Source: a virus (lineage: Duplodnaviria; Heunggongvirae; Uroviricota; Caudoviricetes). From it: a stretch of DNA of 42,407 bases. The stretch spans positions 1 to 42,407 of IMG/VR virus record IMGVR_UViG_2565956608_000007; one strand, given 5' to 3'. The notes beneath the pieces were generated by a model. The model was not told the origin of the DNA, searched no databases, and saw nothing but the letters and a program-made list of their open reading frames with translations. This document shows positions 1,663-41,710 of this stretch, piece after piece. How positions within the stretch are numbered: position 1 is the first letter of the stretch; each line of letters starts with the position of its first letter. A program made the translations under genes and the position numbers.

Positions 1663-1692
1663 GCTGGCGGGAGTTGAACTCGCGTCCGAAAT
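1663..1692. repeat. attL core: 30-bp copy of the ssrA 3'-region sequence (GCTGGCGGGAGTTGAACTCGCGTCCGAAAT)
   Basis: 29/30 identical to 41355-41384, which lies inside the intact ssrA gene; about 120 bp beyond the integrase stop. Confidence 0.65.
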
Positions 1693-1742
1693 GTATTTAA
1701 CTCATTGAAAATAAACATTTCTATTGCTGTTATATACCTCAA

Positions 1743-1759
1743 GTGCATTTTACGTGCAT
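1743..1759. repeat. 17-bp direct repeat GTGCATTTTACGTGCAT (left arm), candidate integrase arm-type or accessory site
   Basis: Identical 17-mer at 41239-41255, both on the prophage side of the att cores. Confidence 0.45.
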
Positions 1760-1814
1760 ATTGAGGTCTGTCTAACGTCCTGATTCTGTCCAACATTTTG
1801 AAATATTTCCCCCG

Positions 1815-2987
1815 CTACAGCGCGGCTGAAATCGCGGTTTTACCGTCATATTCAGCCAGGTATTTACCGTAGTTGCGGAATATCATTTCCGGCCCTTTGT
1901 GGCCCATCTGTCCGGCAAGCCAGAATAGGTTAACGCCCTGGCTAATATGCTTGGTGGCGAATGTGTGCCGCGTCTGGTACGGGTTACGATAGCGCACGCC
2001 AGCTTTTTTCAGGGTCGGCACCCATGCTTTTTTACGGATAGCGTCGGCGTTCGCCCAGGGGTCTCCCGTTTTCGGGTCGCTGAATATGAACTCACTTTTC
2101 ATGAAGGTGTATTGCTTCTGCGCCTGCAGGGCCGCCAGCGCCTCACTGTTCAGCTCCACCTTTCGGGTACCGGCTTTTGTCTTGGTGCCTTTAAGTACCC
2201 CTACGACACTGGCCGCCTGAACGTGGGCTGTGTTCGCGATGGTGTCGAGATCAGGCCAGCGCAGCGCGCACAGTTCGGAGCTCCGCAGACCGGTATTGAA
2301 AGCAAAGCGGAACAGGTTTTCCCATTCCGGGTACCTGCAGCTCTGGTAAATGGCGAGGGTCTCCGCTGGCGTGAACGGGTCAACCTCGTAATCGTCGGCG
2401 CTCGGGCTGCTGTCGATCACGTGGTACCGGCTGGCGCTGACGAGGGTTACCGGGTTAATGGTCAGCAGGCCATCCGTAACAGCTTCATCGATGGCGCTGC
2501 GCAGAAATGAAAGGTTATTCCTGGTCGTTTTCAGTTTTGTTTTCCGGCTGGCTATCCAGTTTTTAAGGACCGCTGGCGTCAGTTCTGACACGTGGAGTTT
2601 ATGCAGGGCTGACAGCGCCGACAGGCATTTTTCATAACCGTTGATAGTCGACGGGGACAGGTTGCGGTTCTGGCAGATTTTCAGGTACTCGTCCAGGTAA
2701 GACTTTATGTTTTTGGTTTTCTTCACCACCCCGAACAGCTCCAGTTTTTTGGAGTTGGGGAAATATTTCGCATATTCAAAGGTGCCACTGACGATCTGGT
2801 TTTGTATCTCCCCGAGCAGGCGCTCGGCGTACTTAACACCGCGCGCGTTTGCTTCCATTTTGGAGAGGGGCTCCCGGCACAGAACCCCTTTGTATGTGAA
2901 AGTGATAACCAGAGTGTCGCCAGTTTTATGCTGGCGGATGGTTACTCCTCTTGGGAGAGATAATGATCCTTGTTCTTTCTTGCCCAC
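1815..2987 (-). CDS. int: tyrosine integrase (lambda-type site-specific recombinase)
   Basis: 390-aa ORF with C-terminal R..HxxR..Y catalytic signature (RHTFATKHI ... RNYGKY); 3' end abuts attL. Confidence 0.9.
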   Translation of the reverse strand: MGKKEQGSLSLPRGVTIRQHKTGDTLVITFTYKGVLCREPLSKMEANARGVKYAERLLGEIQNQIVSGTFEYAKYFPNSKKLELFGVVKKTKNIKSYLDEYLKICQNRNLSPSTINGYEKCLSALSALHKLHVSELTPAVLKNWIASRKTKLKTTRNNLSFLRSAIDEAVTDGLLTINPVTLVSASRYHVIDSSPSADDYEVDPFTPAETLAIYQSCRYPEWENLFRFAFNTGLRSSELCALRWPDLDTIANTAHVQAASVVGVLKGTKTKAGTRKVELNSEALAALQAQKQYTFMKSEFIFSDPKTGDPWANADAIRKKAWVPTLKKAGVRYRNPYQTRHTFATKHISQGVNLFWLAGQMGHKGPEMIFRNYGKYLAEYDGKTAISAAL

Positions 2988-3151
2988 TTCGAAACCTCCG
3001 TTAAGTCAATCCAGCGTTCTTTAACGCCATCGACTTTTAATACATGTACTCCCTCCTTCCATAACCCCCTTTGTATCCGTTTGTTAACGGCTTCTACCGT
3101 TTCCCCCGCGTCCCTGCAGTATGTAGAAAGGGGTACACAGTCAAGACTCAT
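2942..3151 (-). CDS. xis: excisionase-like DNA-binding protein (start chosen at internal ATG)
   Basis: Small ORF overlapping the int start by 46 nt; lambda Xis-like pattern (ETVEAVNKRIQRGLWKEGVHVLKVDG); upstream in-frame start at 3202 also possible. Confidence 0.55.
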   Translation of the reverse strand: MSLDCVPLSTYCRDAGETVEAVNKRIQRGLWKEGVHVLKVDGVKERWIDLTEVSKWARKNKDHYLSQEE

Positions 3152-3440
3152 GGCTGACCTCCTGCCCGAAAGCCTGGGCATTTTCCAGTTCATTAGCGGC
3201 ATAAATCAGGGCGTTGTGATGCGCGCGAAAACCACCATCAAGTTCGCGAGCAGCTCTGTCGCGCAAGATGTCGATCGCAGCCTGATAGTCATTCTGGTAA
3301 TCGGCCGAACTGGCCGGCAGCTCCGCCAGCACCATCAACATGTTTTCCGGGTCGATGGGAATGGTGGCGAGCCCAAGCTCTTTGGCCTCCGCCGCTAAAC
3401 GGGTCCAGCGTTCAATAATTTCAGTGGTACCTTTTTTCAT
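3141..3440 (-). CDS. hypothetical protein (early left operon)
   Basis: 99-aa ORF with GAGG ribosome-binding site upstream of the ATG at 3438-3440. Confidence 0.5.
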   Translation of the reverse strand: MKKGTTEIIERWTRLAAEAKELGLATIPIDPENMLMVLAELPASSADYQNDYQAAIDILRDRAARELDGGFRAHHNALIYAANELENAQAFGQEVSHES

Positions 3441-3448
3441 GGCATGCC

Positions 3449-3544
3449 TCAGAAACCTATCAAAAATTTATACTCAATCAGCGCGCCGAACACGACGGCC
3501 ACCAGCAACAGGCCAAACAGCAGAGAAAGGAAGAATGCTTTCAT
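3449..3544 (-). CDS. small hydrophobic peptide, 31 aa (MKAFFLSLLFGLLLVAVVFGALIEYKFLIGF)
   Basis: ATG overlaps the stop of the upstream gene as ATGA; AAGGA ribosome-binding site; single predicted transmembrane helix; below the size cut-off of the ORF track. Confidence 0.35.
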   Translation of the reverse strand: MKAFFLSLLFGLLLVAVVFGALIEYKFLIGF

Positions 3545-3762
3545 TTTCTGTCCTTCAGTTTGCTGTATCGTTCATGGCTCATTACTTCCCAGTTCTGGCC
3601 GCCGTCTCGGGACAGCAGCCGCCAGCGGCGATTAACCCTCAGGCTCAGGTTTCCGGAGCGGTGCATACGGCAGGGATGAATTCGCCTGGCTCTGAACTGG
3701 CGGAGCACATGGACCGCCTGCAGGTGCACCCACTCAGGAATTCGTATCGCTGTCAGGGCCAT
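3541..3762 (-). CDS. hypothetical basic (Arg-rich) protein
   Basis: ORF from internal ATG at 3760-3762 with AGGAGA ribosome-binding site; tight packing with neighbours. Confidence 0.4.
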   Translation of the reverse strand: MALTAIRIPEWVHLQAVHVLRQFRARRIHPCRMHRSGNLSLRVNRRWRLLSRDGGQNWEVMSHERYSKLKDRK

Positions 3763-3946
3763 TGTCCTTCTCTCCTGCTGGTGGGGTGATCGTGTAACCG
3801 GCGCGTTCAGCCATCCATAAAAAAGTCTCCAGCGATGCTGTAACCTCTCCGTTCTGAACCGGGCGCGCGTGGATAACTTTCCCATTCTCGATTGTCAGCA
3901 CGATATTTACTGGTTCGTGCGTGATAATTGGTGTCTGATCACTCAT
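3734..3946 (-). CDS. hypothetical protein
   Basis: 70-aa ORF from ATG at 3944-3946 with GGAG ribosome-binding site; overlaps the upstream gene end by 8 nt. Confidence 0.45.
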   Translation of the reverse strand: MSDQTPIITHEPVNIVLTIENGKVIHARPVQNGEVTASLETFLWMAERAGYTITPPAGEKDNGPDSDTNS

Positions 3947-4304
3947 GGCTTGTCTCCGCTGTGACTGATTTTTTTTTCTTGGCAAACTCGACCACCTCAG
4001 CAATGAGATCGTCGATTAATGCCTTTCCGCTTTCTGTCAGGAATTCACCGCTGCCATTAACATCAACAGCGCTGCTGTAAATTCCCTTGATAGCTTTTAC
4101 GCCTTCGACATTCCCGTACTCACTGATCGCAAGCCTTTCGAATTTTCTCAATAATCCATCAAGAAGAATCTCTGTTAACTCGACCGTGTTAATGCCGCCT
4201 TTATTGAGCTTAATAACAAGGCAGTTACTGCCTGTTTTACGCTGGTGGCGTAATAACGCTGCCTTTAAAATTCTGCGTCGGTAGGTGTTGATTAAATTAT
4301 CCAT
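3939..4304 (-). CDS. hypothetical protein
   Basis: 121-aa ORF with strong GAGGAGG ribosome-binding site upstream of ATG at 4302-4304. Confidence 0.6.
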   Translation of the reverse strand: MDNLINTYRRRILKAALLRHQRKTGSNCLVIKLNKGGINTVELTEILLDGLLRKFERLAISEYGNVEGVKAIKGIYSSAVDVNGSGEFLTESGKALIDDLIAEVVEFAKKKKSVTAETSHE

Positions 4305-4624: not shown

Positions 4625-5017
4625 TCATACGAAGCGCCTCACAGCCAAAGAAGCGACCACCCGACCGTGAATTTTGATTTCTTTCTGTTCATCAGCATTA
4701 AGGGTGAAAGTTTCGTAATGATGGTTATCAGAGATGATTTTTAATGAGCCATCAGCTAATGGCTCAATTCTCTTAATGAAAAGGCATGGGCGACCAAAAG
4801 CATCCATTGTGTAAACATAAATTCCAGAGGTAAGCGCACTTCCACCGCAATCAACGAAAGCCACAACCTCACATGGTTCGATGGTCGGCTGCATTGAATC
4901 ACCTTCCATCCGGCAGCTTTGAACGCGGTTGCCAAAGTCATTAATGTTGTCAGATCCGAACAGCATCTGAGGCGTTTTAATTGGCTTATTAATTGCGACG
5001 GAATTTTGCATTCTCAT
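4625..5017 (-). CDS. stand-alone S24 (LexA/UmuD-like) peptidase-domain protein
   Basis: 130-aa ORF with GDSMQP serine motif and downstream FIKRI lysine motif typical of S24 peptidases; no HTH domain; GAGG ribosome-binding site. Confidence 0.7.
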   Translation of the reverse strand: MRMQNSVAINKPIKTPQMLFGSDNINDFGNRVQSCRMEGDSMQPTIEPCEVVAFVDCGGSALTSGIYVYTMDAFGRPCLFIKRIEPLADGSLKIISDNHHYETFTLNADEQKEIKIHGRVVASLAVRRFV

Positions 5018-5077
5018 TTCCTCAGGGTGAGTTTGGCCCCACCAAGAAAGGTGTTAATTGAATAATGTTAATTAATT

Positions 5078-5509
5078 TTAAATCTTGTCGGCTTGCTTGC
5101 AGATGGTTTCTTGCAAGTCGTCTAATTTTTCATAAACGATAGTTAGCGTACCGATAGCCGACAATTCCGGAGGCATACAATCCATAGCGTTGGATAAAGC
5201 CATTCTGCAATTGCCAATATCCGCAGACCATGAATTAAGTTGATTGGAAGTTATAATGCTTGTTGGCTCTGTAAAATCACCACACTGCTCGTTTCCTGAA
5301 ATGAGCCACAGAACATCAGAATGAAGAATGTTAGCCAATTGGATTAACTGGTCAGCAAACGGAACAGTTTTTTCCGTTTCCCAGTTGTTAATGGTTTCGG
5401 TTGTTAAACCAAGATGATCAGCCAAAAAATCCTGAGACAGTCGAAGCGAAGATCTTTGATTTAATATTCTTTTGCCGATGGTTTTGGCTACGGTGATTTG
5501 AGTATTCAT
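5078..5509 (-). CDS. HTH (XRE-family) DNA-binding protein, first gene of leftward early operon
   Basis: 143-aa ORF with N-terminal helix-turn-helix (LRLSQDFLADHLGLTTETINNWE); preceded by operator-like palindromes. Confidence 0.7.
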   Translation of the reverse strand: MNTQITVAKTIGKRILNQRSSLRLSQDFLADHLGLTTETINNWETEKTVPFADQLIQLANILHSDVLWLISGNEQCGDFTEPTSIITSNQLNSWSADIGNCRMALSNAMDCMPPELSAIGTLTIVYEKLDDLQETICKQADKI

Positions 5510-5710: not shown

Positions 5711-6409
5711 TTAGAGCCTATTGTAATTGATTGATTCATGCATTATGGCTTTACCCATCACGTAAAGGTCATCTTGGTTTTCTTCCGTGATATACCATTT
5801 CTCATATGCCGGATTATCCGATAAGACTGCCAGCCTGTTTCCCTGCATCTGGAGACGTTTTAGGTGAAATGTTTTACCAAAAACAAAAACATACACACCA
5901 TCCGTTAGAAAGTGTCGGACGGAAATGTCTACGAAGACACGATCACCGGAATTGAACGTGCTGGCCATGCTGTCGCCATTGACGGTCATTACTTTTACGA
6001 CATCTTCACTACGATTCCCGAAGAGGGATTTTGCATGTTGAGTCGTGAACTCAATAGCGTGTAAAACCTCCACATATTCTGAAAGCATGAACGTGCCAGG
6101 CCCTGCACTCACTGAAAGGTCAAGAACCTCGACCCTGAATATGCCAGCGTTATCCTTTACCTCCCTTTCGGGCATGGTCTCTATCACATAGCCCTGTCTA
6201 TGAGGCACATGATTTTTTCCAGTTGATAGCCATTCAGGGCTCACACCCAGCGCATTAGCAATCTCAACCAACTTACGTGTTGTGTTGGTTTTGCCTGCAA
6301 CAAGACGCCAGATAGCTGGTTGCGAAACCCCAACTTTCATCGCTAATTCTGCCTGTGTAAGGCCTGCGTCAACCATCGCTTTTTGAAGACGATCTGAGAA
6401 TGTGTTCAT
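5711..6409 (-). CDS. cI: CI-like prophage repressor (HTH + S24 autopeptidase domain)
   Basis: N-terminal HTH (LTQAELAMKVGVSQPAIWRL) and C-terminal S24 motifs (GDSMAS ... FHLKRL); divergent from Cro-like gene. Confidence 0.85.
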   Translation of the reverse strand: MNTFSDRLQKAMVDAGLTQAELAMKVGVSQPAIWRLVAGKTNTTRKLVEIANALGVSPEWLSTGKNHVPHRQGYVIETMPEREVKDNAGIFRVEVLDLSVSAGPGTFMLSEYVEVLHAIEFTTQHAKSLFGNRSEDVVKVMTVNGDSMASTFNSGDRVFVDISVRHFLTDGVYVFVFGKTFHLKRLQMQGNRLAVLSDNPAYEKWYITEENQDDLYVMGKAIMHESINYNRL

Positions 6410-6518
6410 ACCAATAAGCCTATACAAAAAGTTATTAAGTGGCAAATACGATAAGTTATTGCATAAAGTTATTCAAGGCTATACTCTTTCCCTATGTTCA
6501 ATAACTTTTGGTATTTTT
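6410..6518. promoter_or_regulatory. cI-cro intergenic operator/promoter region (OR-like)
   Basis: Four copies of AGTTATT/AATAACT (6430-6436, 6454-6460, 6467-6473, inverted at 6500-6506) between divergent repressor genes. Confidence 0.55.
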
Positions 6519-6746
6519 ATGATCAATCAACATGTCAAGAGAGCTATCGATATTCTCGGCGGCCAAGCTGCATTAGCAAGGGCGTGCGGGGTTACTCAAC
6601 CGGCTGTATTTCGCTGGCTTAATGGTAGCCGGGTTAAGGCTGATCATGTCATGTCCATTGTTAAAGCTACTGGTGGTGAAGTTAAAGCCTACCAGATCCG
6701 CCCAGACCTTCCAGATACATTCCCTCACCCGGGCAATGAGGTGTGA
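6519..6746 (+). CDS. cro: Cro-like / YdaS-like HTH protein
   Basis: 75-aa product MINQHVKRAIDILGGQAALARACGVTQPAVFRWLNG; divergent from cI; start taken at internal ATG to avoid overlapping the cI start. Confidence 0.65.
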   Translation: MINQHVKRAIDILGGQAALARACGVTQPAVFRWLNGSRVKADHVMSIVKATGGEVKAYQIRPDLPDTFPHPGNEV

Positions 6747-6747: not shown

Positions 6748-6957
6748 ATGTCGCACTCAATCACTACCGAAAACCAAATTAAGCCATTGGATATCGATTA
6801 TCGCGATCCGCGCGGTGTGATTGTGCATGTCACCGGCTGGAATCGGGATAAGCAGCAGGTGTATTTCACCAGGCAGAATTATCCGCATGAATGCATGCAG
6901 CCTGTCTGGAAGTTCCAACAATATTTTACAAAGGTCTCGGAGGCGCAAAATGCGTGA
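6748..6957 (+). CDS. hypothetical protein
   Basis: 69-aa ORF with GAGG ribosome-binding site directly after the cro stop. Confidence 0.5.
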   Translation: MSHSITTENQIKPLDIDYRDPRGVIVHVTGWNRDKQQVYFTRQNYPHECMQPVWKFQQYFTKVSEAQNA

Positions 6958-7315
6958 TTACGGAAAGGTGTCGTCTGAGTTTTGGTTAGACCAGAACGGC
7001 AACAAATGGAAAGTGCCCACGATCAAAGGTCGCCTGAAAATGCGCGTACCCTGCCATCGCGCACTACGCGAATTTGTTCTTTGGCGCGACGGTTTCAAAT
7101 GCCGTCATTGTGGTAGTCAAGACCGCATTAAATTGGTCGCAGATCACATTGTATCGCGACGTAACGGTGGGGCTCACCACCCAGACAACATGCAGTGTTT
7201 GTGTGATTCCTGCAATGCGCGCAAGGCATCCCTGGTTGATGCCAAATTCCAGCCAAGGCCTGATGTAAGTGAGGTTATTTGTTCTGATGGAGGGGTGATT
7301 GATGGCACGCATTAG
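6950..7315 (+). CDS. HNH endonuclease
   Basis: Cys/His motif CRHCG ... DHIVSRRNGGAHHPDNMQCLCDSCNARK; GGAGG ribosome-binding site. Confidence 0.75.
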   Translation: MRDYGKVSSEFWLDQNGNKWKVPTIKGRLKMRVPCHRALREFVLWRDGFKCRHCGSQDRIKLVADHIVSRRNGGAHHPDNMQCLCDSCNARKASLVDAKFQPRPDVSEVICSDGGVIDGTH

Positions 7316-8312
7316 AACAATTAAACCTGAGTTCTGGACTGATGAGAAGATTGTCGAATGCTCATTTGAGGCGCGCCTGATGTTTATCGGAATGTTCAAT
7401 TTTGCCGACGACAAAGGCAATCTGGTGCGCTCCCCGAAGCGTATCAAGATGCAGATTTTCCCTGCGGACATGATCGACTGCGAGCCGTTAATTAAAGAAC
7501 TTAGCCTGGCTGGGTTAATCAGTGAGTATTCAGTGAATGGTGTTGAATATATTCACATTGATGGTTTTTCTAAACACCAGAAAATTAACCGACCATCCGC
7601 AACAACAATACCTACTCCAGAAGAAGTCGCTGATAGCTCACGGAAACCAGCACCTAATTACATGGATGGTTCAGTGAATGATGATGAAAAACAAACATAT
7701 GATTCACATGCAAGCAATGGAGTTAACACTGAGGACTCACTGAGTGCTCACGGCGAACTCACTGACGGAAGGGAAAGGAAGGGAAGGGAAGAGGAAAGGA
7801 ATAAAACTAATTTGTCCGATTCGAATCGGACTGATGGCGATAAACCTGACGAGTCGAAAGGGAAACCTTCACAGGAAAAACCTGATTCAGAATCAGATGA
7901 TGCTGAAGGCCAAGATCCAGTCGATGTCGCTTTCGAAAATATTTTTTGGGGGGCAGGTCTGAGAAAGGATGCCAAGGTCAAGGCTAAGTCAGCGTTCAGG
8001 ACCAAATATCGCGACTGGAAAAAAGCGAACCGAGGTACGCCTGAGAACTTCGCCGTTATGCTGGCTGAAGATATCAGCCTCCGGGTGAAAACACAGCAAA
8101 TGGGGTTCGACAAACTCCTGCCAGCGTCATACCTGAACGGAGAGCGCTGGAACGATGAAAAACCAAATGGAGCTCCTCAGATATCCGCAAGCGCAAACGC
8201 CATCGGTGGGACAGGGGCTTCCTGGTTCGCAAAACCAAGTGACGGTTCGGCTGAGGTATTTATCAGCCAGGCAGCCATTGACCGCATGAAGCGCGGAGCT
8301 AACCGCCCATGA
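7302..8312 (+). CDS. putative replication initiation / replisome organizer protein
   Basis: N-terminus ARIRTIKPEFWTDE resembles conserved phage replication-protein N-domains (recalled, not searched); position upstream of the primase-helicase; acidic low-complexity linker. Confidence 0.5.
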   Translation: MARIRTIKPEFWTDEKIVECSFEARLMFIGMFNFADDKGNLVRSPKRIKMQIFPADMIDCEPLIKELSLAGLISEYSVNGVEYIHIDGFSKHQKINRPSATTIPTPEEVADSSRKPAPNYMDGSVNDDEKQTYDSHASNGVNTEDSLSAHGELTDGRERKGREEERNKTNLSDSNRTDGDKPDESKGKPSQEKPDSESDDAEGQDPVDVAFENIFWGAGLRKDAKVKAKSAFRTKYRDWKKANRGTPENFAVMLAEDISLRVKTQQMGFDKLLPASYLNGERWNDEKPNGAPQISASANAIGGTGASWFAKPSDGSAEVFISQAAIDRMKRGANRP

Positions 8313-8415
8313 AAAGAATCCTCAAACGTCTACTGGTTGCTGGCTATAACCGCGGCTTTTTGCGTGAGGAATTCGTGACTATGTGCTTTATAAAATTCGA
8401 TTTACGGAGTGTGTG

Positions 8416-11380: not shown

Positions 11381-11442
11381 TATGATCGGAGCAAATGTCG
11401 ACACTTTTTTGCGCGTTAGTGTTGACTTTGCATAAGGTTGTC

Positions 11443-11470
11443 TTGTAAGCTTCTGATTATGGAGTATAAC
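11443..11470 (+). promoter_or_regulatory. candidate late promoter (PR'-like): -35 TTGTAA, 16-bp spacer, -10 TATAAC
   Basis: Sigma70-like hexamers read by eye directly downstream of the Q-like gene and about 25 bp upstream of a terminator. Confidence 0.3.
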
Positions 11471-11494
11471 GCCTGTAGATAATTAACCTCGAAA

Positions 11495-29658: not shown

Positions 29659-29661
29659 CAG

Positions 29662-33190: not shown

Positions 33191-33192
33191 GC

Positions 33193-34254
33193 ATGTCACA
33201 GAACTGGATGAGACATTTCGAGTTGCAGCTCCTGGACGAGAACGGGCAGGGGATTGAACTCAGCGATTTTAAAGTAACCTTTACGATCGACTGGTTCAAC
33301 ATCAGCAGCGCGTCACGGGTGGGGACGTTCAAAATTTACAACCTGTCTGCAGATACCTCCAACCGTATAACCGGCAAAGAGTTTTCGAAAGTTCGGCTGA
33401 TTGCCGGTTACGACGGTATCGCGCCGGAGGTATCGGCAAGCGACGTCGGGACCGTTCGCGAAGTCGACGCGGCGGACGTGGGACAGAGTGATGGCCGCAA
33501 CTATGGACTTATTTACAGCGGTGAAATTCGCTACTCGGTCACCGGTAAAGACAGTCCTATTGATTCCTACGTCCTGATTCAGGCAGCCGATACGGATCTG
33601 GCTTTTGCCACCAGCATAACCTCGCAGACGCTGGCGGCCGGTTACACAGTCGCAGACGTGAACCGCGCGCTGATGAAAGACTTCGAGGCCAAAGGCGCGA
33701 CCGAAGGCCTTACCCCTGAAATGCCTGCTACCGTATTCCCCCGTGGCCGGGTGCTGTTCGGCATGACACGGCACCTTATGGATAACGTGGCCGGACAATG
33801 TGGCGCAACATGGCAATTCGTGGATGGCCAGCGGCAGATGGTGGCGAATAACGAATATGTTCACGATGCGATTGTGCTCAACAGCGCCACCGGGCTTATC
33901 GGCATGCCGCAGCAGACCATCGGCAACGGCGTAAACGTCCGCGCGCTGATTAACCCGAACATCCGGGTTAACGGGCTCATTCAGCTGGATCAGGCTTCCG
34001 TGTATCGTACCGCGCTGTCGAACAACGATATCGCTATGGCTGGTGGGCAGATCACCGACCAGAACACGGACGGAAATATCACGCTAAGCGGCACCACGGC
34101 GCAACCTGCCAGTATCGCAACGGATGGCGTTTATATTGTGCGCGGGATTATGTACACTGGCGATACAAGGGGCCAGGCGTGGTACATGGATATGATGTGC
34201 GAAGCGCGTGGCGCGGCGGATCTCCGCACTCAGGACTCGCTTAATCGGGGGTAA
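33193..34254 (+). CDS. putative baseplate hub / tail protein
   Basis: 353-aa ORF before the spike gene, in the position of the Mu-type hub gene. Confidence 0.45.
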   Translation: MSQNWMRHFELQLLDENGQGIELSDFKVTFTIDWFNISSASRVGTFKIYNLSADTSNRITGKEFSKVRLIAGYDGIAPEVSASDVGTVREVDAADVGQSDGRNYGLIYSGEIRYSVTGKDSPIDSYVLIQAADTDLAFATSITSQTLAAGYTVADVNRALMKDFEAKGATEGLTPEMPATVFPRGRVLFGMTRHLMDNVAGQCGATWQFVDGQRQMVANNEYVHDAIVLNSATGLIGMPQQTIGNGVNVRALINPNIRVNGLIQLDQASVYRTALSNNDIAMAGGQITDQNTDGNITLSGTTAQPASIATDGVYIVRGIMYTGDTRGQAWYMDMMCEARGAADLRTQDSLNRG

Positions 34255-34256
34255 AT

Positions 34257-34598
34257 TTGAAAGCCTTAGCCATTTTAATTGTTGCCTTTATGTCATTTGG
34301 GGCATCAGCAAGCGGGTACACCGCTTATTGTGGGCCTTACACCATCACTGCAAGGTTGGGTGAAATGGACATAATTAACGGTGAACGCGTCACATCGCAG
34401 AAAATTACAAATCTTGGTGCTGATGGCATTAAGATTGATATGGGGCTTATGCCTGCTAAAGATGGCAACAATTATGGCTTTGAATACATTCGCCGTCCGG
34501 GTACCGAAACGCGATTCCTGAATGTCCAACTGCTGCAGAATAGCATGGACGCGCCGAAAGTTATCGGCTCTTTCCCATGCAAAAAAGTTTCTGATTAA
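34257..34598 (+). CDS. secreted protein of unknown function (moron inside tail cluster)
   Basis: Signal peptide MKALAILIVAFMSFGASA; visibly AT-rich relative to flanking tail genes. Confidence 0.55.
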   Translation: MKALAILIVAFMSFGASASGYTAYCGPYTITARLGEMDIINGERVTSQKITNLGADGIKIDMGLMPAKDGNNYGFEYIRRPGTETRFLNVQLLQNSMDAPKVIGSFPCKKVSD

Positions 34599-34613
34599 AG
34601 TAATTAATGGACT

Positions 34614-35036
34614 TTGTTTATGGCGGTCAGCAGGTCAAAGAAAATAGTTTTATTAGTTGTCATTGTTGTAGGTTATTTAATTGGAAACCATAAAAACAAT
34701 GAAACTGACAAAGTGTCTGGTAATACCGAAGCCCCTGAAAAGGCTGCAGCGCAACAATCAAGTAATACTCCTACTTTGTCAGAGGATGTTCTTTTAAAGA
34801 ATGAAGTGATATTTACCTGTAAGGATATCGCCCGATCTTCTTTATCGTTGCCGGACACATTCGAAACCGAACAGACTGAAAGCGGGATCGACGAGAAAAA
34901 TGGAAAGCAAGTTTATTACTTTACCCTGCATTTTTCTGGAATGAACGCCTTCAATAGTCGAATCACTCATACAATAGAGTGTTACGGGACGGTAGGAGAC
35001 AAAAACCGAACTGTTACCTATAAAACATTCAACTAA
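34614..35036 (+). CDS. membrane-anchored protein of unknown function (moron inside tail cluster)
   Basis: N-terminal transmembrane helix (KKIVLLVVIVVGYLIG); AT-rich; followed by its own terminator. Confidence 0.55.
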   Translation: MFMAVSRSKKIVLLVVIVVGYLIGNHKNNETDKVSGNTEAPEKAAAQQSSNTPTLSEDVLLKNEVIFTCKDIARSSLSLPDTFETEQTESGIDEKNGKQVYYFTLHFSGMNAFNSRITHTIECYGTVGDKNRTVTYKTFN

Positions 35037-35057
35037 CCCGCCACCCGGCGGGTTTTT
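35037..35057 (+). terminator. Rho-independent terminator after the moron pair
   Basis: CCCGCC-ACCC-GGCGGG followed by TTTTT. Confidence 0.6.
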
Positions 35058-35076
35058 GCTTTCTGGAGCCTACCAA

Positions 35077-35829
35077 ATGGCAGTATCTGACCAGACCCGC
35101 AGCGGCGACCTTGCCGAAACATTCAAATCTGAGCGGGACACGACAAAAAACCAGATCCGCGTCGCTTTGCCTGGTATCGTTCAGTCATTCGACCCTGACG
35201 CGGTGACGGCGGTTGTGCAGCCTGCTATCCGCTCTGTTGAAACCGATAACGACGGCAACCGCGTTACCAAAAATTACCCGCTGCTGGTGGATGTGCCGGT
35301 GGTATTTCCGCGCGGCGGCGGCTGCACGTTAACTTTCCCGGTAAAAGCCGGCGATGAATGCCTGGTGATTTTTGCCGATCGCTGCATCGATTTCTGGTGG
35401 CAGAACGGCGGGGTGCAGGAGCCTGTCGACGACCGGGTGCATGATTTATCGGATGCGTTCTGTATCGTCGGGCCCCAGTCACAGGCGCAGAAAATCAGCG
35501 GAATCAGCACGGGGGCCGCTCAACTGCGCAGCGACGATGGAAGCACGTTCTTTGAGCTCGACCCCACTACGCAGAAAATTAAAATCGTAGCGCCTGGCGG
35601 TCTGGATGTAGTTACTCCACTGGCCGACTTCTCGGCGAAAGTTACAATTCACGGGCTCCTGTCCTGGCTGGGTGGAATGGTGGGTTCAGTTGCTTCTGGC
35701 GTTGCATCCAAAATCACTGGCGCTGTCGAGTTTATCGGTACCGTTAAAGCTAACGGCAAGTCAATTGATGATACGCACACTCACGGCGGCGTACAGCACG
35801 GCACCAGCAACACAGACGGGGTGAACTGA
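35077..35829 (+). CDS. baseplate central spike protein (Mu gp45-like)
   Basis: Motif PLLVDVPVVFPRGGGCTLTFPVKAGDECLVIFADRCID typical of baseplate spike N-domains; ATG at 35077. Confidence 0.65.
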   Translation: MAVSDQTRSGDLAETFKSERDTTKNQIRVALPGIVQSFDPDAVTAVVQPAIRSVETDNDGNRVTKNYPLLVDVPVVFPRGGGCTLTFPVKAGDECLVIFADRCIDFWWQNGGVQEPVDDRVHDLSDAFCIVGPQSQAQKISGISTGAAQLRSDDGSTFFELDPTTQKIKIVAPGGLDVVTPLADFSAKVTIHGLLSWLGGMVGSVASGVASKITGAVEFIGTVKANGKSIDDTHTHGGVQHGTSNTDGVN

Positions 35830-36182
35830 TGCGATACAGACGTGAAGACGCCGACGGTGATTACACCTTTGGCAGCGGCGATGATACCTGGCTGATTAAC
35901 TCACCGGAGGCCGTGGCGCAGGCGGTAAAAACGCGATTCGAATTGTGGTATGGGCAATGGTTTCTCGACACCACCGAGGGGACACCGTGGATTCAGTCCG
36001 TACTCGGTAAGCAGAAGCCGGAAACCTACAACCTGGCGATCCGTAAGCGCATCCTCGAAACGCGGGGCGTTAAATCCATTCTCTCTTTCAATACGACAGT
36101 GAACACTACGACGCGCCGCGTCCAGTTCTTCGCTGAAATCGACACCATCTACGGAATAACGACAGTAACCAGCGAGGCATAA
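35829..36182 (+). CDS. baseplate protein (GpW-like)
   Basis: 117-aa ORF between spike and J-like genes. Confidence 0.5.
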   Translation: MRYRREDADGDYTFGSGDDTWLINSPEAVAQAVKTRFELWYGQWFLDTTEGTPWIQSVLGKQKPETYNLAIRKRILETRGVKSILSFNTTVNTTTRRVQFFAEIDTIYGITTVTSEA

Positions 36183-37382
36183 ATGGCCCTCAATTTGGAC
36201 ACACTCGGCTTATCGGCAACGGTAACCGCTGAGGGGATCAGTGCGCCTGATTACCAGACGATACTCGATACCCTGACGAGCTATTTTCAGCAGATTTATG
36301 GCAGTGACGCTTATCTGGAGCCAGACAGCAAAGACGGCCAGATGGTGGCGCTGGTGGCGCTGGCTATTCACGATGCCAACAACACGGCCATCTCCGTTTA
36401 TAACTGCTTCTCACCTGCTACGGGTTACGGTGCAGCGCTGACGAGTAACGTAAAAATTAACGGTATCGCGCGCCGGGGGGCGACGAATTCTACCGTGGAT
36501 CTGGTTCTGACAGGTACTGCCGGGACGTCCATTACAAACGGTACTGTGAAGGACACGAATAACGTGATCTGGCGACTTCCTGCCTCGGTGACGATCGGTG
36601 TCGGCGGTACCGTGACGGTAACTGCAACCTGTTCAAACAGCGGAGCGGTTGCGGCGCTGGCTGGGACGATTACCACTATCAACACGCCGACCCGTGGCTG
36701 GGCTTCAGTAACCAACCCGGCGGCGGCCACCGTAGGCGCACCGGCGGAAACCGACGCAGAGTTGCGCATCAGGCAGGGGCAAAGCGTCGCTCTGCCCTCA
36801 CTCACACCGTTTGAAGGTGTCGACGGTGCGATCGCCAACGTTGCAGGCGTGACACGTCACAAGCTCTACGAGAATGATACTGGTGCAACCGACAGCAACG
36901 GTCTGCCTCCTCATTCCATTTCCGCCATCGTCGATGGGGGGGATGTTACCGAGATAGCCCAGACAATCAGGGGAAACAAAGGGCAGGGAACAGCCACTTA
37001 TGGGACGACATCTGTCACGGTACCGGACACCTACGGCAACCCACACGTGATCAGCTTTTCGCGGTCTACTGATGTGCCAATTTATGGACATATCACCCTG
37101 AAGGCATTCACCGGCTACACGTCGCAAATTGGCGTACAGATTCAGCAGGCCGTCGCGGATTACATCAACGGGCTGACCATCGGCGACGATGTGCTGCTTA
37201 GCAGGATTTATTCTCCGGCGAACCTCGGCGTAGTGAGTGGCGGCAATGCGCGCTACTACGACATACAGGAGCTGCTGATTGGCAAATCAGCCGGTAGCGT
37301 AGCGGCGGCAAACATCATCATCGCCTATAACGAATCCGCGTCGTGTAAACCCGAAAACATTGTTCTAACGGTGACGTCATGA
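36183..37382 (+). CDS. baseplate J-like protein
   Basis: 399-aa ORF, size and position typical of baseplate J. Confidence 0.7.
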   Translation: MALNLDTLGLSATVTAEGISAPDYQTILDTLTSYFQQIYGSDAYLEPDSKDGQMVALVALAIHDANNTAISVYNCFSPATGYGAALTSNVKINGIARRGATNSTVDLVLTGTAGTSITNGTVKDTNNVIWRLPASVTIGVGGTVTVTATCSNSGAVAALAGTITTINTPTRGWASVTNPAAATVGAPAETDAELRIRQGQSVALPSLTPFEGVDGAIANVAGVTRHKLYENDTGATDSNGLPPHSISAIVDGGDVTEIAQTIRGNKGQGTATYGTTSVTVPDTYGNPHVISFSRSTDVPIYGHITLKAFTGYTSQIGVQIQQAVADYINGLTIGDDVLLSRIYSPANLGVVSGGNARYYDIQELLIGKSAGSVAAANIIIAYNESASCKPENIVLTVTS

Positions 37383-38059
37383 GCAAGTACACGGACTTAA
37401 TCACCAACTATCACGCCACGAAGCCGAAATTTTTTGATCACGTCGACCTGAGCACGCGGCCACTGATTGATATCACTACCGCAACCCGGGGGCTGGTAAG
37501 CGCTTTCGATATTGATACCGCTGTCGGCGTCCAGCTCGATACGCTCGGCCTCTGGATTGGTCGCAGTCGCATTGTCAGCCAGCCGATAAGCGGCGTGTAT
37601 TTCAGTTGGGATACTGACGGGCTCGGATATGACCAGGGCGTATGGCAAGGCCCATATGATCCAGATGCAGGCTATACCACGCTGAGCGATACAACCTATC
37701 GCATCGTTCTTAAGGCAAAAATCGCCATCAACAACTGGGACGGCCGCAATGATTCGCTGCCTCCCATCCTTGACGCTGCAACTGCAGGCTCTGGCCTGAA
37801 GATGCAGATCGTCGACAACCAGGACATGACGATCTCGGTCTGGGTATTTCCCGAGACAGATATATCAAATGTGTCTCTCGAACTAATCGCCGCTATCAAA
37901 CAGGGCTATCTCACCGTTAAAGCAGCTGGCGTATGGGCCGGTGACGTGGAAACGCCTTCGGTAGAAACACCGTCAGAAGGCTCTAAATTCTTTGGCTTCG
38001 ACATGGACAACGAATATATCGCCGGATTTGATGATGGCGCATGGGGGAAATTACTGTAA
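37379..38059 (+). CDS. baseplate / tail protein adjacent to fiber
   Basis: 226-aa ORF overlapping the J-like stop. Confidence 0.5.
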   Translation: MSKYTDLITNYHATKPKFFDHVDLSTRPLIDITTATRGLVSAFDIDTAVGVQLDTLGLWIGRSRIVSQPISGVYFSWDTDGLGYDQGVWQGPYDPDAGYTTLSDTTYRIVLKAKIAINNWDGRNDSLPPILDAATAGSGLKMQIVDNQDMTISVWVFPETDISNVSLELIAAIKQGYLTVKAAGVWAGDVETPSVETPSEGSKFFGFDMDNEYIAGFDDGAWGKLL

Positions 38060-39177
38060 TGGCAATAAATAACTTTAAACCATTCGCGACAGCAGCGAAT
38101 GCTAACGTGATGTCCCAGGCTGACTGGGAAGGGCTTCCGGCTCTGCTCTCTGGTTTTACTTCAGGCAAGGCGGCCAGCGCAGAGGTAAATAAGGCAATCC
38201 GGCAGGCCAGCTTTATCGCGGCAGCGCTGGCGCAGTACACCGCCAACAAAAGTGGGCTGGATGTGCTTGATGATGCTGATTTGAACGGGTTCATTACCAA
38301 AATGACCACTGCATTTGGTAAGGATTTCCAGGCGCTGGACGCCACGCTAACAGCACTTGCCGGCCTCGCTACTGGAGCAAACAAGCTTCCGTATTTCACC
38401 GGGACAGATACCGCGGCACAAACTGACCTTACGCAGATCGGTCGGGACGTTATCGGTCAGACAACCGTGGCGAACCTTCTCACATACCTCGGTTTGGGAG
38501 ATGGCACAGGAAGGCTTATTAATGTCCAGACTTTTACGGCTAGCGGAACATATACCCCAACCGCCGGAACAAAATTTGTTATCGCTGAGGTTCTTGGAGG
38601 TGGCGGCGGTGGCGGCAGTAACGCGGCTACGCCAAGTTCAGGGGCGGCGGCAGGTGCTGGCGGAGCTTCAGGTGCCTATGCAGTTTGCAAGCATACACCG
38701 ACAGGGCCGGTAAGTGTTGTTATTGGTGCTGGTGGGGCTGGCGGAGTATCTACGGCAGCTGGTGCTGATGGTAGCACAGGCGGGACATCATCTTACGGCG
38801 CAGTATCAGCACCTGGTGGGCGTGGAGGCCCCAGAGGCGTGGCGTTTAATAACTTCCCTACGGGTGGAAACGTTGCGACTGGTTCATCTGGTGTTACTGG
38901 TTCAGTTATTGTTGGTACACCTGGTACCGGCGGATCATATGGCATTCTTTATTCAGATTCGAATGCTACAGGCGGCGGTGGAGCAAACAGTATTTATGGC
39001 GCAGGCGGAATTGCCATAACAATCAACAGCGGTGGATCAGGTACTTCACAAGGGGCTGATGCCAATGGTTATGGTTCTGGTGGCGGTGGTGCTGTTTCTG
39101 TGCATACGGCGACAGCATCCAGTTCACGTGGAGGCAATGGCACGCCAGGGATTGTAATTATCTGGGAGTACGCATAA
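38059..39177 (+). CDS. tail fiber protein with glycine-rich C-terminal region
   Basis: Conserved fiber-like N-terminus (MAINNFKPFATAANANVMSQADWEGL); C-terminal half dominated by GG/GxG repeats; TAATG overlap with upstream gene. Confidence 0.75.
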   Translation: MAINNFKPFATAANANVMSQADWEGLPALLSGFTSGKAASAEVNKAIRQASFIAAALAQYTANKSGLDVLDDADLNGFITKMTTAFGKDFQALDATLTALAGLATGANKLPYFTGTDTAAQTDLTQIGRDVIGQTTVANLLTYLGLGDGTGRLINVQTFTASGTYTPTAGTKFVIAEVLGGGGGGGSNAATPSSGAAAGAGGASGAYAVCKHTPTGPVSVVIGAGGAGGVSTAAGADGSTGGTSSYGAVSAPGGRGGPRGVAFNNFPTGGNVATGSSGVTGSVIVGTPGTGGSYGILYSDSNATGGGGANSIYGAGGIAITINSGGSGTSQGADANGYGSGGGGAVSVHTATASSSRGGNGTPGIVIIWEYA

Positions 39178-39584
39178 TGAAAGAATTTGCAGTAGTTAAA
39201 GATGGTATGGTGGTTAATATTATTTTGTGGGGTGGCGAAGATAACGGCTTTGCGAAAGATATTGATGGTGAACTTATCGCAATTCCAGAAGAGATTCAGG
39301 TCGGTATTGGCTGGAGTTATGAAGGTGAGAAATTTGCATCCCCTCCTGAACCGGATAAAACTAAAGAGCAGCTAATTCAGGAAGCAAACCTTGAAAAAGA
39401 GGGGCGCATAAATTCAGCCAATGATTACATGAACAGCAAGCAGTGGCCTGGCAAAGCTGCGATTGGTCGTCTAAAGGGTGACGAATTGGCCCAGTACAAC
39501 CTTTGGCTTGATTACCTGGATGCACTGGAAGCGGTTAATACATCTACTGCACCAGATATCACCTGGCCTCAGCAACCAGAATAA
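39177..39584 (+). CDS. tail fiber assembly protein (Tfa-like chaperone)
   Basis: C-terminus AAIGRLKGDELAQYNLWLDYLDALEAV typical of Tfa chaperones. Confidence 0.7.
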   Translation: MKEFAVVKDGMVVNIILWGGEDNGFAKDIDGELIAIPEEIQVGIGWSYEGEKFASPPEPDKTKEQLIQEANLEKEGRINSANDYMNSKQWPGKAAIGRLKGDELAQYNLWLDYLDALEAVNTSTAPDITWPQQPE

Positions 39585-39624: not shown

Positions 39625-40668
39625 TCATATTAAAGCTTTTCGTAAAAGCGTCTTCCCAATTAAAACACCTTTTCGCTCTACAGTTTTATGCGCAAAATAA
39701 CAAACTATAAATAACAATGTTAATATTTGAATGTTGCTGTTGATATATGGGATTTGTAATTTTGAAACCACTAGTGACAAAGTATACCAAATCCAGTTAT
39801 GGAACAAGTATACAGCATAAGTCATTTCAGACAGTAAATTGCATGCTTTGGATTCAATGAATTTATCTCTAAACAACCACGAAACAAGGAAAATAATAAC
39901 TCCTGTAAATGCGTAGTTGTACTGGCCCCAGAATGGATTTATTTTCTCAATGAGAGATAAATGCAGATAGAACATAATTACGATGGATGCTAAAGCAATA
40001 ACCCGATTAACTAACTTATGCTCTACAAGATACACTACTACACCGATAAACAAAAATGGCGTATACAATGTAAAGTAAGCATTATGAAAATCATTAGCCA
40101 CAGGGAAAGGGTTAATGCTGGATATAAAAAACGATACAACAAGAAGGAGAACAGTCAAAACGTTTCCTTTGTTTATTATACCAGCTTTTTTAACTAATCC
40201 CATAAACACGTAGAACATCATTTCTATTCTTAGTGTCCATTCTACGCCAGCTAATGAAAGTGGAGTGTTAAAGAAATCACCTATGAGCAAAAGTCTTGGG
40301 ATTAGTATAGTTAGAGGTGGAACACCAGCACCGTTATAATACTGAACTAACATTTCTGCAATAACTGCAAAAATGTATAAAGGATATATTCTAAAAATCC
40401 TTTTTAAATAAAATTCAAAAGTTGCTTCTTTTTGTAAAACGTGGGTTATGATATATCCTGAAACAAGAAAGAAGATTACAACCCCCATAGCCCCACCGAA
40501 ACTGGCATCGGCAAGTAGACCGTAAAATGATCTAAGTGTTACGTGGTTACTTGGATCGCTCGCCCACGAAGCTAAATCTTTGTTGAACTTGTGGCCTAAC
40601 ACCACAAGAGAGAATGCAAAGATACGCATGTAATCTAAAAAAAGAATTCTACGATTGTTCATTTTCAT
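39625..40668 (-). CDS. acyltransferase family 3 membrane protein (OafA/Oac-like O-antigen acetyltransferase)
   Basis: About 347-aa polytopic membrane protein with acyltransferase-3-type N-terminus (RILFLDYMRIFAFSLVVLGH); markedly AT-rich; located between tail genes and attR. Confidence 0.75.
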   Translation of the reverse strand: MKMNNRRILFLDYMRIFAFSLVVLGHKFNKDLASWASDPSNHVTLRSFYGLLADASFGGAMGVVIFFLVSGYIITHVLQKEATFEFYLKRIFRIYPLYIFAVIAEMLVQYYNGAGVPPLTILIPRLLLIGDFFNTPLSLAGVEWTLRIEMMFYVFMGLVKKAGIINKGNVLTVLLLVVSFFISSINPFPVANDFHNAYFTLYTPFLFIGVVVYLVEHKLVNRVIALASIVIMFYLHLSLIEKINPFWGQYNYAFTGVIIFLVSWLFRDKFIESKACNLLSEMTYAVYLFHNWIWYTLSLVVSKLQIPYINSNIQILTLLFIVCYFAHKTVERKGVLIGKTLLRKALI

Positions 40669-40809
40669 CAAAATCTTATTGTTGATGAGGCTATTTTATA
40701 GCATGAACAGCGAAATTCATAACAGGTTGGTGGTTGGGGTGGTGAAAAATCTCATCATGGAAGAAAAATCTGGCTGTCAGCGTTTATTAATGCTGGCAGC
40801 CAGCACATT

Positions 40810-41076
40810 TTACAGCCCAACCTGGCGAACTGTCGGGAACTCAGAAACCAGCCACATATCGGCCTCTTCAAACATATCCTCCAGCATGCGGTTGAGTTTT
40901 TCCCGATCGTTTTTGCTGGCATCGCTATTCAAGCCGTTCGCCTGCATCGGCTTCACCCTCACTTCGGCATCAGGGAAGATCTGGTGCACTCGCTTCGTCA
41001 GCTCAGCCAGGATAATCTCTCTGGCCCCTTCAAGTCCCTCTACATTTCGCTTGTCATAAACCAGTTCAACGAACAT
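40810..41076 (-). CDS. dinI: DinI-family protein
   Basis: 88-aa ORF resembling DinI (acidic C-terminus EEADMWLVSE); GGAGG ribosome-binding site; two LexA boxes upstream. Confidence 0.7.
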   Translation of the reverse strand: MFVELVYDKRNVEGLEGAREIILAELTKRVHQIFPDAEVRVKPMQANGLNSDASKNDREKLNRMLEDMFEEADMWLVSEFPTVRQVGL

Positions 41077-41095
41077 AAAAGCCTCCGGAAAACCA

Positions 41096-41135
41096 CTGTG
41101 GTTGTATACAGTATTTTTACTGTAAAAATAAACAG
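41096..41135. promoter_or_regulatory. two tandem LexA (SOS) boxes
   Basis: aCTGTggttgtatACAGta at 41096-41111 and taCTGTaaaaataaACAGtg at 41120-41135, both fitting CTGT-N8-ACAG; 20-60 bp upstream of the dinI-like start. Confidence 0.7.
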
Positions 41136-41195
41136 TGTCAAGGCATGGGCTGCGCGAGGAAGGGAAGTATTTTTGTTACCCTTAGTTACAAATAG

Positions 41196-41230
41196 AAAAA
41201 CCCCAGACCGTGAGATCTGGGGTTCTTTTA
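41196..41230. terminator. bidirectional Rho-independent terminator downstream of ssrA
   Basis: CCCCAGA-loop-TCTGGGG hairpin with A-run 5' and T-rich tract 3'. Confidence 0.55.
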
Positions 41231-41238
41231 AAGTGCAC

Positions 41239-41255
41239 GTGCATTTTACGTGCAT
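41239..41255. repeat. 17-bp direct repeat GTGCATTTTACGTGCAT (right arm)
   Basis: Identical to 1743-1759. Confidence 0.45.
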
Positions 41256-41347
41256 TTTTTTGTCTTTTCTCGGTCTGCGCTCTGTCTGGTCAGAGTCCGT
41301 AAGTAGCTGTTTTTATTGCCGCTGTCCGGTTGTAGTCCTATCAAAAG

Positions 41348-41710
41348 TGGTGGAGCTGGCGGGAGTTGAACCCGCGTCCGAAATTCCTACATCCTCGGTA
41401 CTACATGCTTAGTCAGTCTTTACATTCGCTTGCCAGCTGCGGACGGACACGCCACTAACAAACTAGCCTGATTAAGTTTTAACGCTTCAACCCCAGGCAG
41501 GGCTTCCACGCGATCTCTTTTGGGTTTGACCTCTCTTGATCCCCGTCCTAAGAGCGGAGGCTAGGGAGAGAGGGCTCTAAGCAGGTTATTAAGCTGCTAA
41601 AGCGTAGTTTTCGTCGTTTGCGACTATTTTTTGCGGCTTTTTACGAGGCCAACCGCCCCTCGGCATGCACCTTGGGTTTCGCAAATCCCGTCGAATCCAG
41701 AATCAGCCCC
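41348..41710 (-). ncRNA. ssrA: tmRNA (transfer-messenger RNA, SsrA)
   Basis: Minus-strand sequence begins GGGGCTGATTCTGGATTCGACGGG and ends ...GGTTCAACTCCCGCCAGCTCCACCA; 363 nt; directly downstream of smpB. Confidence 0.95.
41355..41384. repeat. attR core inside ssrA (GCTGGCGGGAGTTGAACCCGCGTCCGAAAT)
   Basis: 29/30 identical to 1663-1692. Confidence 0.65.

Follow-up and report, generated by a model that had tools for sequence, protein, structure and literature searches.

Temperate phages that combine lambdoid control with a contractile-tail architecture have been described before. Among them, the Salmonella phage SEN34, which was induced with mitomycin C, is a myovirus by electron microscopy and genetically lambda-like and has been described as the prototype of a new lambda cluster ('temperate 26'; PMC5261728). 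Similarly, several elements are known to reside at the 3' end of ssrA, the gene coding for transfer-messenger RNA (tmRNA), and to supply a functional 3' end of the gene, including Eco48X in RS218, Ecoc48X in CFT073 and Oi108 in EDL933 (Williams 2003, as tabulated in PMC10107115). Here we have analyzed a stretch of DNA of 42,407 nucleotides (nt) constituting positions 1 to 42,407 of the IMG/VR record IMGVR_UViG_2565956608_000007, which we refer to as the window in its full length. The window contains a prophage that very probably represents a temperate phage genome of 39,692 bp in apparently complete form, namely a new mosaic of SEN34-like (Brunovirus-type) lambdoid myophages that was inserted by a tyrosine integrase into the 3' part of the tmRNA gene of E. 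coli. Since its late half is of the SEN34 type and its early half of the type found in Escherichia phage LMessi, the element is an ordinary lambdoid mosaic.

The DNA surrounding the prophage originates from the E. coli chromosome and places the element between glaH, also termed csiD, and ssrA-smpB (Table 1). Its boundaries are defined by a single pair of att repeats with the sequence GCTGGCGGGAGTTGAAC[T/C]CGCGTCCGAAAT, a 30-bp direct repeat with copies at 1663-1692 and 41355-41384, whose sole mismatch concerns a T at 1680 as opposed to a C at 41372. The repeat corresponds to the 3' end of the tmRNA and its right copy belongs to the 3' end of an intact ssrA. The outer edges of this repeat coincide with the range of 1663-41384 given for the prophage in the original prediction, while the length of 39,692 bp comprises one att copy and the DNA between the repeats. 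For an empty-site test, we have joined the left flank including the left core (1300-1692) in silico to the body of ssrA (41385-41800). A single uninterrupted match to the resulting synthetic junction, with 99.3% identity, was obtained in 709 of the 5,426 complete E. coli genomes examined. In an alignment with the unoccupied site of the strain NRG 857C, glaH is followed by 680 bp and then by ssrA, with nothing in between. The phage side of the reaction is found in LMessi (PP925823), where the region 840-1110 aligns without interruption over both arms and the core, as predicted for attP, in the order right arm (41195-41354), last nucleotides of ssrA, core and a left-arm-like sequence running into int. 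The direct repeats, the empty sites and the contiguous attP of LMessi together establish integration into the 3' part of the tmRNA gene, as had been proposed for a prophage located at ssrA between csiD and smpB-ssrA.

The attP of the phage includes a duplicate of the terminal 37 nt of ssrA together with a terminator, and the prophage therefore rebuilds a working ssrA at its right end and leaves a displaced fragment of the gene at its left end. As read from the sequence, the hairpin and T-run terminating ssrA in the lysogen come from the phage arm. The core holds the T-arm of the tmRNA (GCGGG-AGTTGAA-CCCGC), and strand exchange probably takes place in the 7-nt T-loop AGTTGAA, which is bordered by the inverted repeat of the T-stem, since the only polymorphism of the core is located just 3' of the loop (on its right in the orientation of the window). 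The 17-mer GTGCATTTTACGTGCAT that is present in both arms provides plausible arm-type integrase sites, given that the integrase contains an Arm-DNA-binding domain. We have also considered whether the left flank (1500-1662), which resembles the P arm, would be the remnant of an older phage arm. This interpretation was rejected as the same flank is present in unoccupied sites, where it constitutes the native trailer and terminator of ssrA; the resemblance is real, with the phage arm mimicking the flank.

The mosaic organization of the element becomes apparent in comparisons of its protein and DNA sequences, which relate the early module to the siphovirus LMessi, with 88-99% protein identity, and the late module to SEN34, to Yersinia phage YP3 and to a prophage of E. 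coli DX6. The features shared with LMessi encompass int, xis, CI, a pair of helix-turn-helix (HTH) and S24 proteins, the primase-helicase and Q, in addition to an attP of the same type containing the 3' end of ssrA. The late genes 2-27 of SEN34 are collinear with those of the window and of full length, with protein identities of 33-99%. At the DNA level, 49% of the late half align with SEN34 at 84% identity compared to about 7% of the early half, all of it in the terminase gene. Genus-level similarity to the Brunovirus SEN34 is not reached, the convention of the International Committee on Taxonomy of Viruses being about 70% nucleotide similarity over the whole genome. The prophage of DX6 (NZ_CP126345.1), which occupies the same ssrA site and is 95% identical in the late half, is the closest chromosomal relative. 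Near ssrA, this strain apparently contains two related prophages about 40 kb apart (at ~1.18 and 1.22-1.24 Mb), possibly as a tandem array, with the ssrA-proximal copy carrying frameshifted lysozyme, portal and baseplate J genes. In YP3 (PV092592), the late module is 90-99% identical to that of the window. Baseplate and fibre genes in duplicate sets as well as a gin invertase are also present in this record, which has the appearance of a chimera or a composite assembly.

The same comparisons bear on the integrity of the genome. Each of the 26 late proteins of SEN34 from 2 to 27 can be aligned to the window practically from end to end, within a single frame and in conserved order, and full-length matches were equally obtained for the early proteins of LMessi, with identities of 99.6% for CI, 99.4% for the primase-helicase and 99.2% for Q. 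The exception is a hypothetical open reading frame (ORF) of LMessi coding for 49 amino acids, whose counterpart in the window is divided between two frames and which is unlikely to be a genuine gene. None of the three frameshifts annotated in the DX6 relative is found in the window. The claim that the modules are intact and the long ORFs devoid of frameshifts is thus corroborated by the full length of the genes with respect to the late region of SEN34 and the early region of LMessi.

Lambdoid features had been proposed for the early genes, and most of them are recovered in our analysis. The int and xis genes overlap, CI combines an HTH with an S24 peptidase domain, and the divergent genes for CI (- strand) and Cro (+ strand) are separated by repeated operators, as is characteristic for lambdoid phages. 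The octamer AAGTTATT that clusters in this region is found nine times in the window compared to 1.1 copies expected by chance. A Q-like gene with an associated promoter-terminator pair is evident from a match to the PF03589 family, from a promoter-like site at 11358-11386, which straddles the stop codon of Q, and from a hairpin (GCCCGC..GCGGGT) followed by a run of seven T at ~11487-11518. Three further strong terminators are located upstream of the lysis genes at 12441, 12683 and 12860. The lysis genes form the anticipated cassette of the S-R-Rz type, with two holins, an endolysin consisting of GH108 and PG_binding_3 domains and an Rz1 gene overlapping with Rz. The lambdoid description does not extend to replication, where searches of Pfam and PHROG did not find genes of the O/P type of lambda but instead an initiator and a primase-helicase. 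Similarly, no N-like family was identified among nine ORFs on the leftward strand in Pfam and PHROG (the ORF 3541-3885 being compared to Pfam and PADLOC only), and nut sites were not searched for.

The order and domains of the genes suggest that a LexA-type CI bound to the AAGTTATT operators would keep Cro and the rightward operon off. Its RecA-stimulated cleavage would release the expression of Cro, the replication initiator, the primase-helicase and Q. In turn, Q would carry transcription past the terminators that precede the lysis genes and activate a late operon of about 25 kb. The residues required for autocleavage, including an Ala-Gly site, the serine of a GDSM motif and the lysine of a KR motif, can be recognized in CI. 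With these LexA-type residues, the viability of the mitomycin-induced phage SEN34 and the complete deposition of LMessi as a phage isolate, the inducibility that had been predicted for the prophage appears plausible.

Between the lysis and the packaging genes, the window encodes a second tyrosine recombinase, which had escaped notice in the original prediction together with two HNH endonucleases and a ParE-like toxin. The recombinase is only 23% identical to the integrase, and its catalytic R, HxxR, H and Y residues are invariant in homologues down to 36% identity. Searches of PDB sequences with the recombinase and with the product of the following gene, a protein resembling small terminases (TerS), returned weak generic matches only. 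A role as invertase was discarded as there were no convincing inverted repeats. In viral contigs of IMG/VR retrieved with either of the two genes as query, the recombinase precedes the TerS-like gene by about 250 bp, without exception among the 71 loci with sufficient upstream sequence. The pair also occurs, at 42-47% identity, in Yersinia pestis and Serratia contigs that encode Rep3 and/or ParA, where it precedes unrelated terminases and where TerL and portal belong to other families.

These data are relevant for the question whether the element would be a tandem or composite, in which the second recombinase serves as integrase of a separate mobile element placed between lysis and packaging genes. 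The recombinase is intact and adjoins cargo of low guanine-cytosine (GC) content, integrase clades targeting late genes of prophages are known (PMC10111431), and DX6 apparently carries two related prophages. Conversely, no direct repeats flank the region beyond two-copy matches at the level expected by chance (D1-D4), a single pair of att repeats bounds the entire element, and the constant TerS-like neighbour in the 71 informative loci, including that in the plasmid-like contigs of Yersinia and Serratia, points to the recombinase as a constant component of the packaging module as opposed to an insertion. We thus consider a composite of two elements as highly improbable and regard the recombinase as a component of one phage genome.

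The assignment of the neighbouring protein as TerS is based on several features. Its final 16 residues (NLTPQEAADIYKKILG) correspond to the very C-terminal end of the TerS of SEN34 (DLTTDQAAELYKKMMG), a phage whose TerL is 80% identical to the equivalent protein in the window. Relatives with another type of TerL keep the N-terminal two-thirds of the protein but carry a different C-terminal tail. Such behaviour is in line with a TerS that binds DNA with its head and TerL with its tail. Among its 295 homologues, the best 120 are all 96-100% identical. The spacer preceding the gene contains inverted TCCAC half-sites (TCCACATAGTGGA ... ATCCACTAT) near the stop codon of the recombinase and direct repeats of the sequence GATAYGCCGCA at 18122, 18147 and 18205. 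Since relatives with other TerS alleles show a correspondingly altered repeat motif, the repeats are candidates for pac or TerS binding sites, while no clear lox-like core was definable in the spacer. Recombinase and TerS may form an obligate two-gene cassette associated with packaging, in which the recombinase may act at a site in the spacer by the pac-like repeats, either to cyclise terminally redundant DNA after injection or to resolve multimers, both in a manner analogous to Cre acting on loxP next to pac, or else to assist the terminase in the formation of genome ends. The comparison with Cre and loxP next to pac is drawn from the phage P1. We put this proposal forward tentatively, as simple genetic linkage or a relic of plasmid maintenance could also account for the synteny. 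Our literature searches did not reveal a description of such a cassette, which is the only feature of the element that might repay further study.

Several observations weigh against an interpretation of the element as complete phage. No viable phage with this exact mosaic is on record, as its early half is not covered to at least 80% by any of the 5,426 complete E. coli genomes or of 50,697 phage records. The three frameshifts in the DX6 relative show that the lineage decays. The ORF of the MuF-domain protein overlaps with the portal gene by 71-149 nt, depending on its start. The small-terminase assignment draws on weak matches to PHROG and NCBIfam in addition to gene position and the match of 16 C-terminal residues, and operators, qut and pac are candidate cis sites at the level of sequence patterns. 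Concerning the overlap, a lesion in the portal or MuF gene was rejected, as the portal of SEN34 aligns to its last residue in one frame. An alternative would be a defective or cryptic prophage with intact ORFs, whose lytic cycle is blocked by lesions in cis sites or by the incompatibility of recombined modules, such as in the specificity of Q for the late promoter or the pairing of TerS with pac. The absence of the exact mosaic from the databases, the decay of the DX6 relative and the 2.5 kb of low-GC cargo (14556-17016) situated between LMessi-like and YP3/SEN34-like segments would all be in line with this possibility. It is countered by the full length of all compared protein-coding genes, by the C-terminal tail of TerS, which matches the type of TerL, by the recurrence of the recombinase-TerS-TerL-portal block with 96-100% identity in many IMG/VR contigs and by the retention of the autocleavage residues of CI. 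On balance, a defective prophage appears unlikely and we favour an apparently complete temperate phage genome.

Table 1. Features of the window with their positions and strands; where the strand field is empty, no orientation applies or is given.
Feature	Position	Strand	Remarks
glaH (=csiD)	1-978	-	99.8% identity, e.g., with E. coli ATCC 11775 and NU14
Distal att copy (bacterial flank / core / phage P' arm)	1663-1692		Displaced ssrA 3'-end fragment; one C>T change; lacks 5 nt (GTGGA) directly left
Candidate arm-type Int binding repeat	1743-1759		P' arm; identical 17-mer in P arm at 41239
Integrase, 390 aa	1815-2987	-	Arm-DNA-bind_2, SAM-like and Phage_integrase catalytic domains
Excisionase	2942-3202	-	phrog_2917, E=1e-40; 46-nt overlap with int start
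Putative toxin-antitoxin pair	3541-4003	-	ParE-like domain in ORF 3541-3885; phrog_340 ORF 3734-4003
Stand-alone S24 peptidase-domain protein; DicA-like HTH protein	4625-5017; 5078-5509	-	First two genes of leftward operon
CI repressor	5711-6445	-	HTH_3 and Peptidase_S24
Operator region	6429-6507		4 octamer copies within 79 bp between cI and cro
Cro, 75 aa	6519-6746	+	YdaS/P22_Cro-type HTH; not annotated in LMessi record
HNH endonuclease	6821-7315	+	Classic HNH; likely start near 6950
Replication module	7299-10287	+	Initiator 7299-8312 (phrog_1408); Toprim/DnaB-like primase-helicase 8383-10287
Q antiterminator	10598-11380	+	PF03589, E=4e-53; phrog_127, E=1.5e-101
pR'-tR'-like pair	11358-11518	+	Promoter-like TTGAGA-17-TATGAT; hairpin ~100 nt later
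HNH_3-AP2 homing-type endonuclease	11675-12160	+	Between Q and lysis genes
STnc100 small RNA family match (Rfam)	12512-12714	+	Within leader carrying the three strong terminators
Lysis cassette	12940-14556	+	Holins 12940-13329, 13319-13597; endolysin 13597-14139; Rz 14136-14405; Rz1 14326-14556
Low-GC cargo genes	15235-16957	+	Four proteins of unknown function
Second tyrosine recombinase, 334 aa	17025-18029	+	Catalytic R, HxxR, H, Y
Recombinase-TerS spacer, 245 bp	18030-18273		Inverted half-sites; three direct repeats
Small terminase-like protein, 200 aa	18274-18876	+	N-terminal HTH; C-terminal tail like SEN34 TerS
TerL	19060-20691	+	
Portal	20696-22162	+	PF06381
MuF-domain head morphogenesis protein	22014/22038-22766	+	PF04233, E=7.5e-13, residues 134-239; overlaps portal 3' end
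Head and neck genes	23028-28057	+	DUF2213, E217/Pam3-type cement protein, major capsid PF09950, DUF4054, adaptor, neck terminator
Tail genes	28061-32301	+	Sheath, tube KPP10_Orf10, assembly chaperone, DUF6889, tape measure
Baseplate and fibre genes	32301-39584	+	Dit-like, plug, hub, two small cargo genes, spike, wedge, Baseplate_J, DUF2612, Gly-rich fibre, fibre assembly
Distal cargo	39625-41076	-	Acyl_transf_3 acyltransferase 39625-40671; DinI-family protein 40810-41076
Phage P arm	41196-41384		ssrA terminator hairpin 41196-41230; arm-type repeats 41233-41255
P arm, ssrA part	41348-41354; 41355-41384		Last 7 nt of ssrA; proximal att core
ssrA (tmRNA, tag ANDENYALAA)	41348-41710	-	Complete gene
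smpB	41925-42407	-	

Based on homology, the products of the late operon comprise a headful-type terminase, a head built from PF06381, MuF and PF09950 proteins, a contractile tail and a simple baseplate resembling that of the phages E217 and Pam3. A Mu-like head had been suggested, which holds for the MuF domain (PF04233) and not for the remainder of the structure, since the portal belongs to PF06381 instead of the family of Mu gpH and the capsid to PF09950 instead of that of Mu gpT. Instead of Mu-type families for portal (gpH), protease (gpI) and capsid (gpT), the head contains DUF2213 and a cement protein of the E217/Pam3 type. The predicted organization of the tail, with sheath, tube, an SLT-bearing tape measure and a baseplate including spike, W-like and J-like components, agrees with our assignments of the sheath to DUF3383 (phrog_205, E=9e-135), of the SLT domain to residues 508-604 at the C-terminus of the tape measure, of the spike to PF18352 and of the wedge to phrog_120, together with the Baseplate_J protein. 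Within the baseplate operon, the region 34257-35036 contains two small low-GC genes whose N-termini, by eye, resemble signal peptides or membrane anchors. Both are 96-99% identical to genes 20 and 21 of SEN34 compared to just 72-84% for the flanking baseplate genes, and this difference suggests that the two genes, whose function is unknown, were exchanged recently as a cargo cassette.

Further genes are located at the periphery of the modules. The acyltransferase and DinI genes adjoin attP on the strand opposite to the late operon, where SEN34 and DX6 contain analogous genes, and the acyltransferase is a possible modifier of O-antigen or surface polysaccharide. In the early-left operon, a ParE-like toxin domain (PF24732, E=7e-19, residues 52-109) occupies the C-terminal part of the ORF 3541-3885 and is preceded by an overlapping phrog_340 ORF, the two constituting a possible toxin-antitoxin pair for which PADLOC gave no match. 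The adjoining HTH-only and S24-only genes at 4625-5509 appear as if a second CI-type repressor had been split in two, an arrangement that is kept in LMessi with 99% and 89% identity. The HNH genes are inserted in the early-right operon (6821-7315) and between Q and lysis genes (11675-12160); LMessi lacks them at these positions and contains other genes at the second. The leader that separates Q from the lysis genes contains, at 12330-12460, a T-arm resembling that of a tRNA (GCTGGTTCGACTCCAGC) with a strong terminator behind it, and this structure may represent a decayed tRNA gene; ARAGORN does not call a tRNA at this T-arm near 12400. The low-GC stretch further downstream encodes one protein with a signal-peptide-like N-terminus, one rich in hydrophobic segments, both as judged by eye, and two small proteins. 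A PADLOC scan of ten cargo proteins did not detect any matches.

Our gene assignments deviate from the LMessi record in several instances. The integrase of LMessi is annotated with 415 amino acids, and a truncation of the equivalent protein in the window was considered and rejected, as the N-terminal extension holds stop codons in the window. The call in LMessi is probably over-extended, since the Arm-binding domain already begins at residue 12 of the ORF of 390 amino acids. Between 6300 and 6763, LMessi is annotated with ORFs of 42 and 111 amino acids, where the window encodes, in other frames, Cro with 75 and a DUF4222 protein with 69 amino acids, the latter being one of the rightward early genes. 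The ORF of 42 amino acids (6494-6622) was replaced by that of Cro, which is probably mis-annotated in the LMessi record. A frameshifted replication gene composed of 6821-7315 and 7299-8312 was dismissed as the first ORF is a separate HNH endonuclease.

The left junction of the prophage reads CATGATTG-----GCTGGCG compared to CATGATTGGTGGAGCTGGCG in the native unoccupied site and thus misses 5 nt of the acceptor/CCA end of the tmRNA, which on the tmRNA strand corresponds to CGCCAGC-----CA. The same gap is present in ATCC 11775 and O157:H7 beside quite different elements, in the former case a different phage that occupies the same ssrA junction; a variant with 4 nt was detected in one further strain, and the identical 60-nt junction in at least 136 complete genomes. 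Since the distal att copy lacks these nucleotides, precise excision is predicted to yield an intact attP but a defective ssrA, and curing of the prophage would leave the host with a non-functional tmRNA gene. This phenomenon is already known. The CGCCAGC-----CA class is listed for Eco48X of RS218 and Oi108 of EDL933, after Williams 2003 (Table 1 in PMC10107115), and in K-12 the excision of CP4-57 leaves an analogous one-base change that was shown experimentally to inactivate trans-translation (PMC10107115). We have consequently dropped the idea of the gap as a novel 'ratchet'. The end predicted after excision is identical in Eco48X, Oi108 and the prophage described here. For its host strain, the element is a probably SOS-inducible prophage, as judged from its genes, with an acyltransferase possibly modifying surface polysaccharide, a DinI homologue and a ParE-like toxin. 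In a wider context, a further mosaic is thereby added to a phage type already described, at a well-known integration hot spot of E. coli, and the finding is of little consequence beyond annotation.

Compared to known phages, the element is related to different systems in its different parts. LMessi, with which it shares early genes and attP, contains head and tail genes of an HK97-type siphovirus and glycosyltransferases, unlike the window, and its lysis genes are just 44-93% identical. SEN34 is, like the element, temperate and encodes an integrase, immunity, Q and lysis genes in a lambdoid-style layout and a contractile-tail virion, the morphology of the element being predicted from its genes. 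Both phages carry an acyltransferase gene on the opposite strand after the fibre genes. In contrast, the early region of SEN34 contains O/P-type replication, RecET/Gam and nin genes, its integrase has no detectable similarity to that of the window, its TerS is without a counterpart beyond the C-terminal residues described above, and a second recombinase is absent. A more distant likeness in sequence relates the virion to Pseudomonas phage E217 and cyanophage Pam3, with which it shares the cement protein (PF22758), the plug (PF22479), a weakly matching hub (PF22759) and the arrangement of Dit-like, spike, wedge and J proteins. Both E217 and Pam3 are minimal myophage virions and neither is known to be a lambdoid temperate phage of enterobacteria. 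Finally, the element shares with lambda the order att-int-xis ... cI-cro-replication-Q-lysis-late, the overlap of xis and int, a repressor with an S24 domain and a promoter-terminator pair after Q, and differs from it in its O/P-independent replication genes, the lack of a detected N, its GH108 endolysin, its contractile tail and its integration at ssrA instead of the attB between gal and bio.

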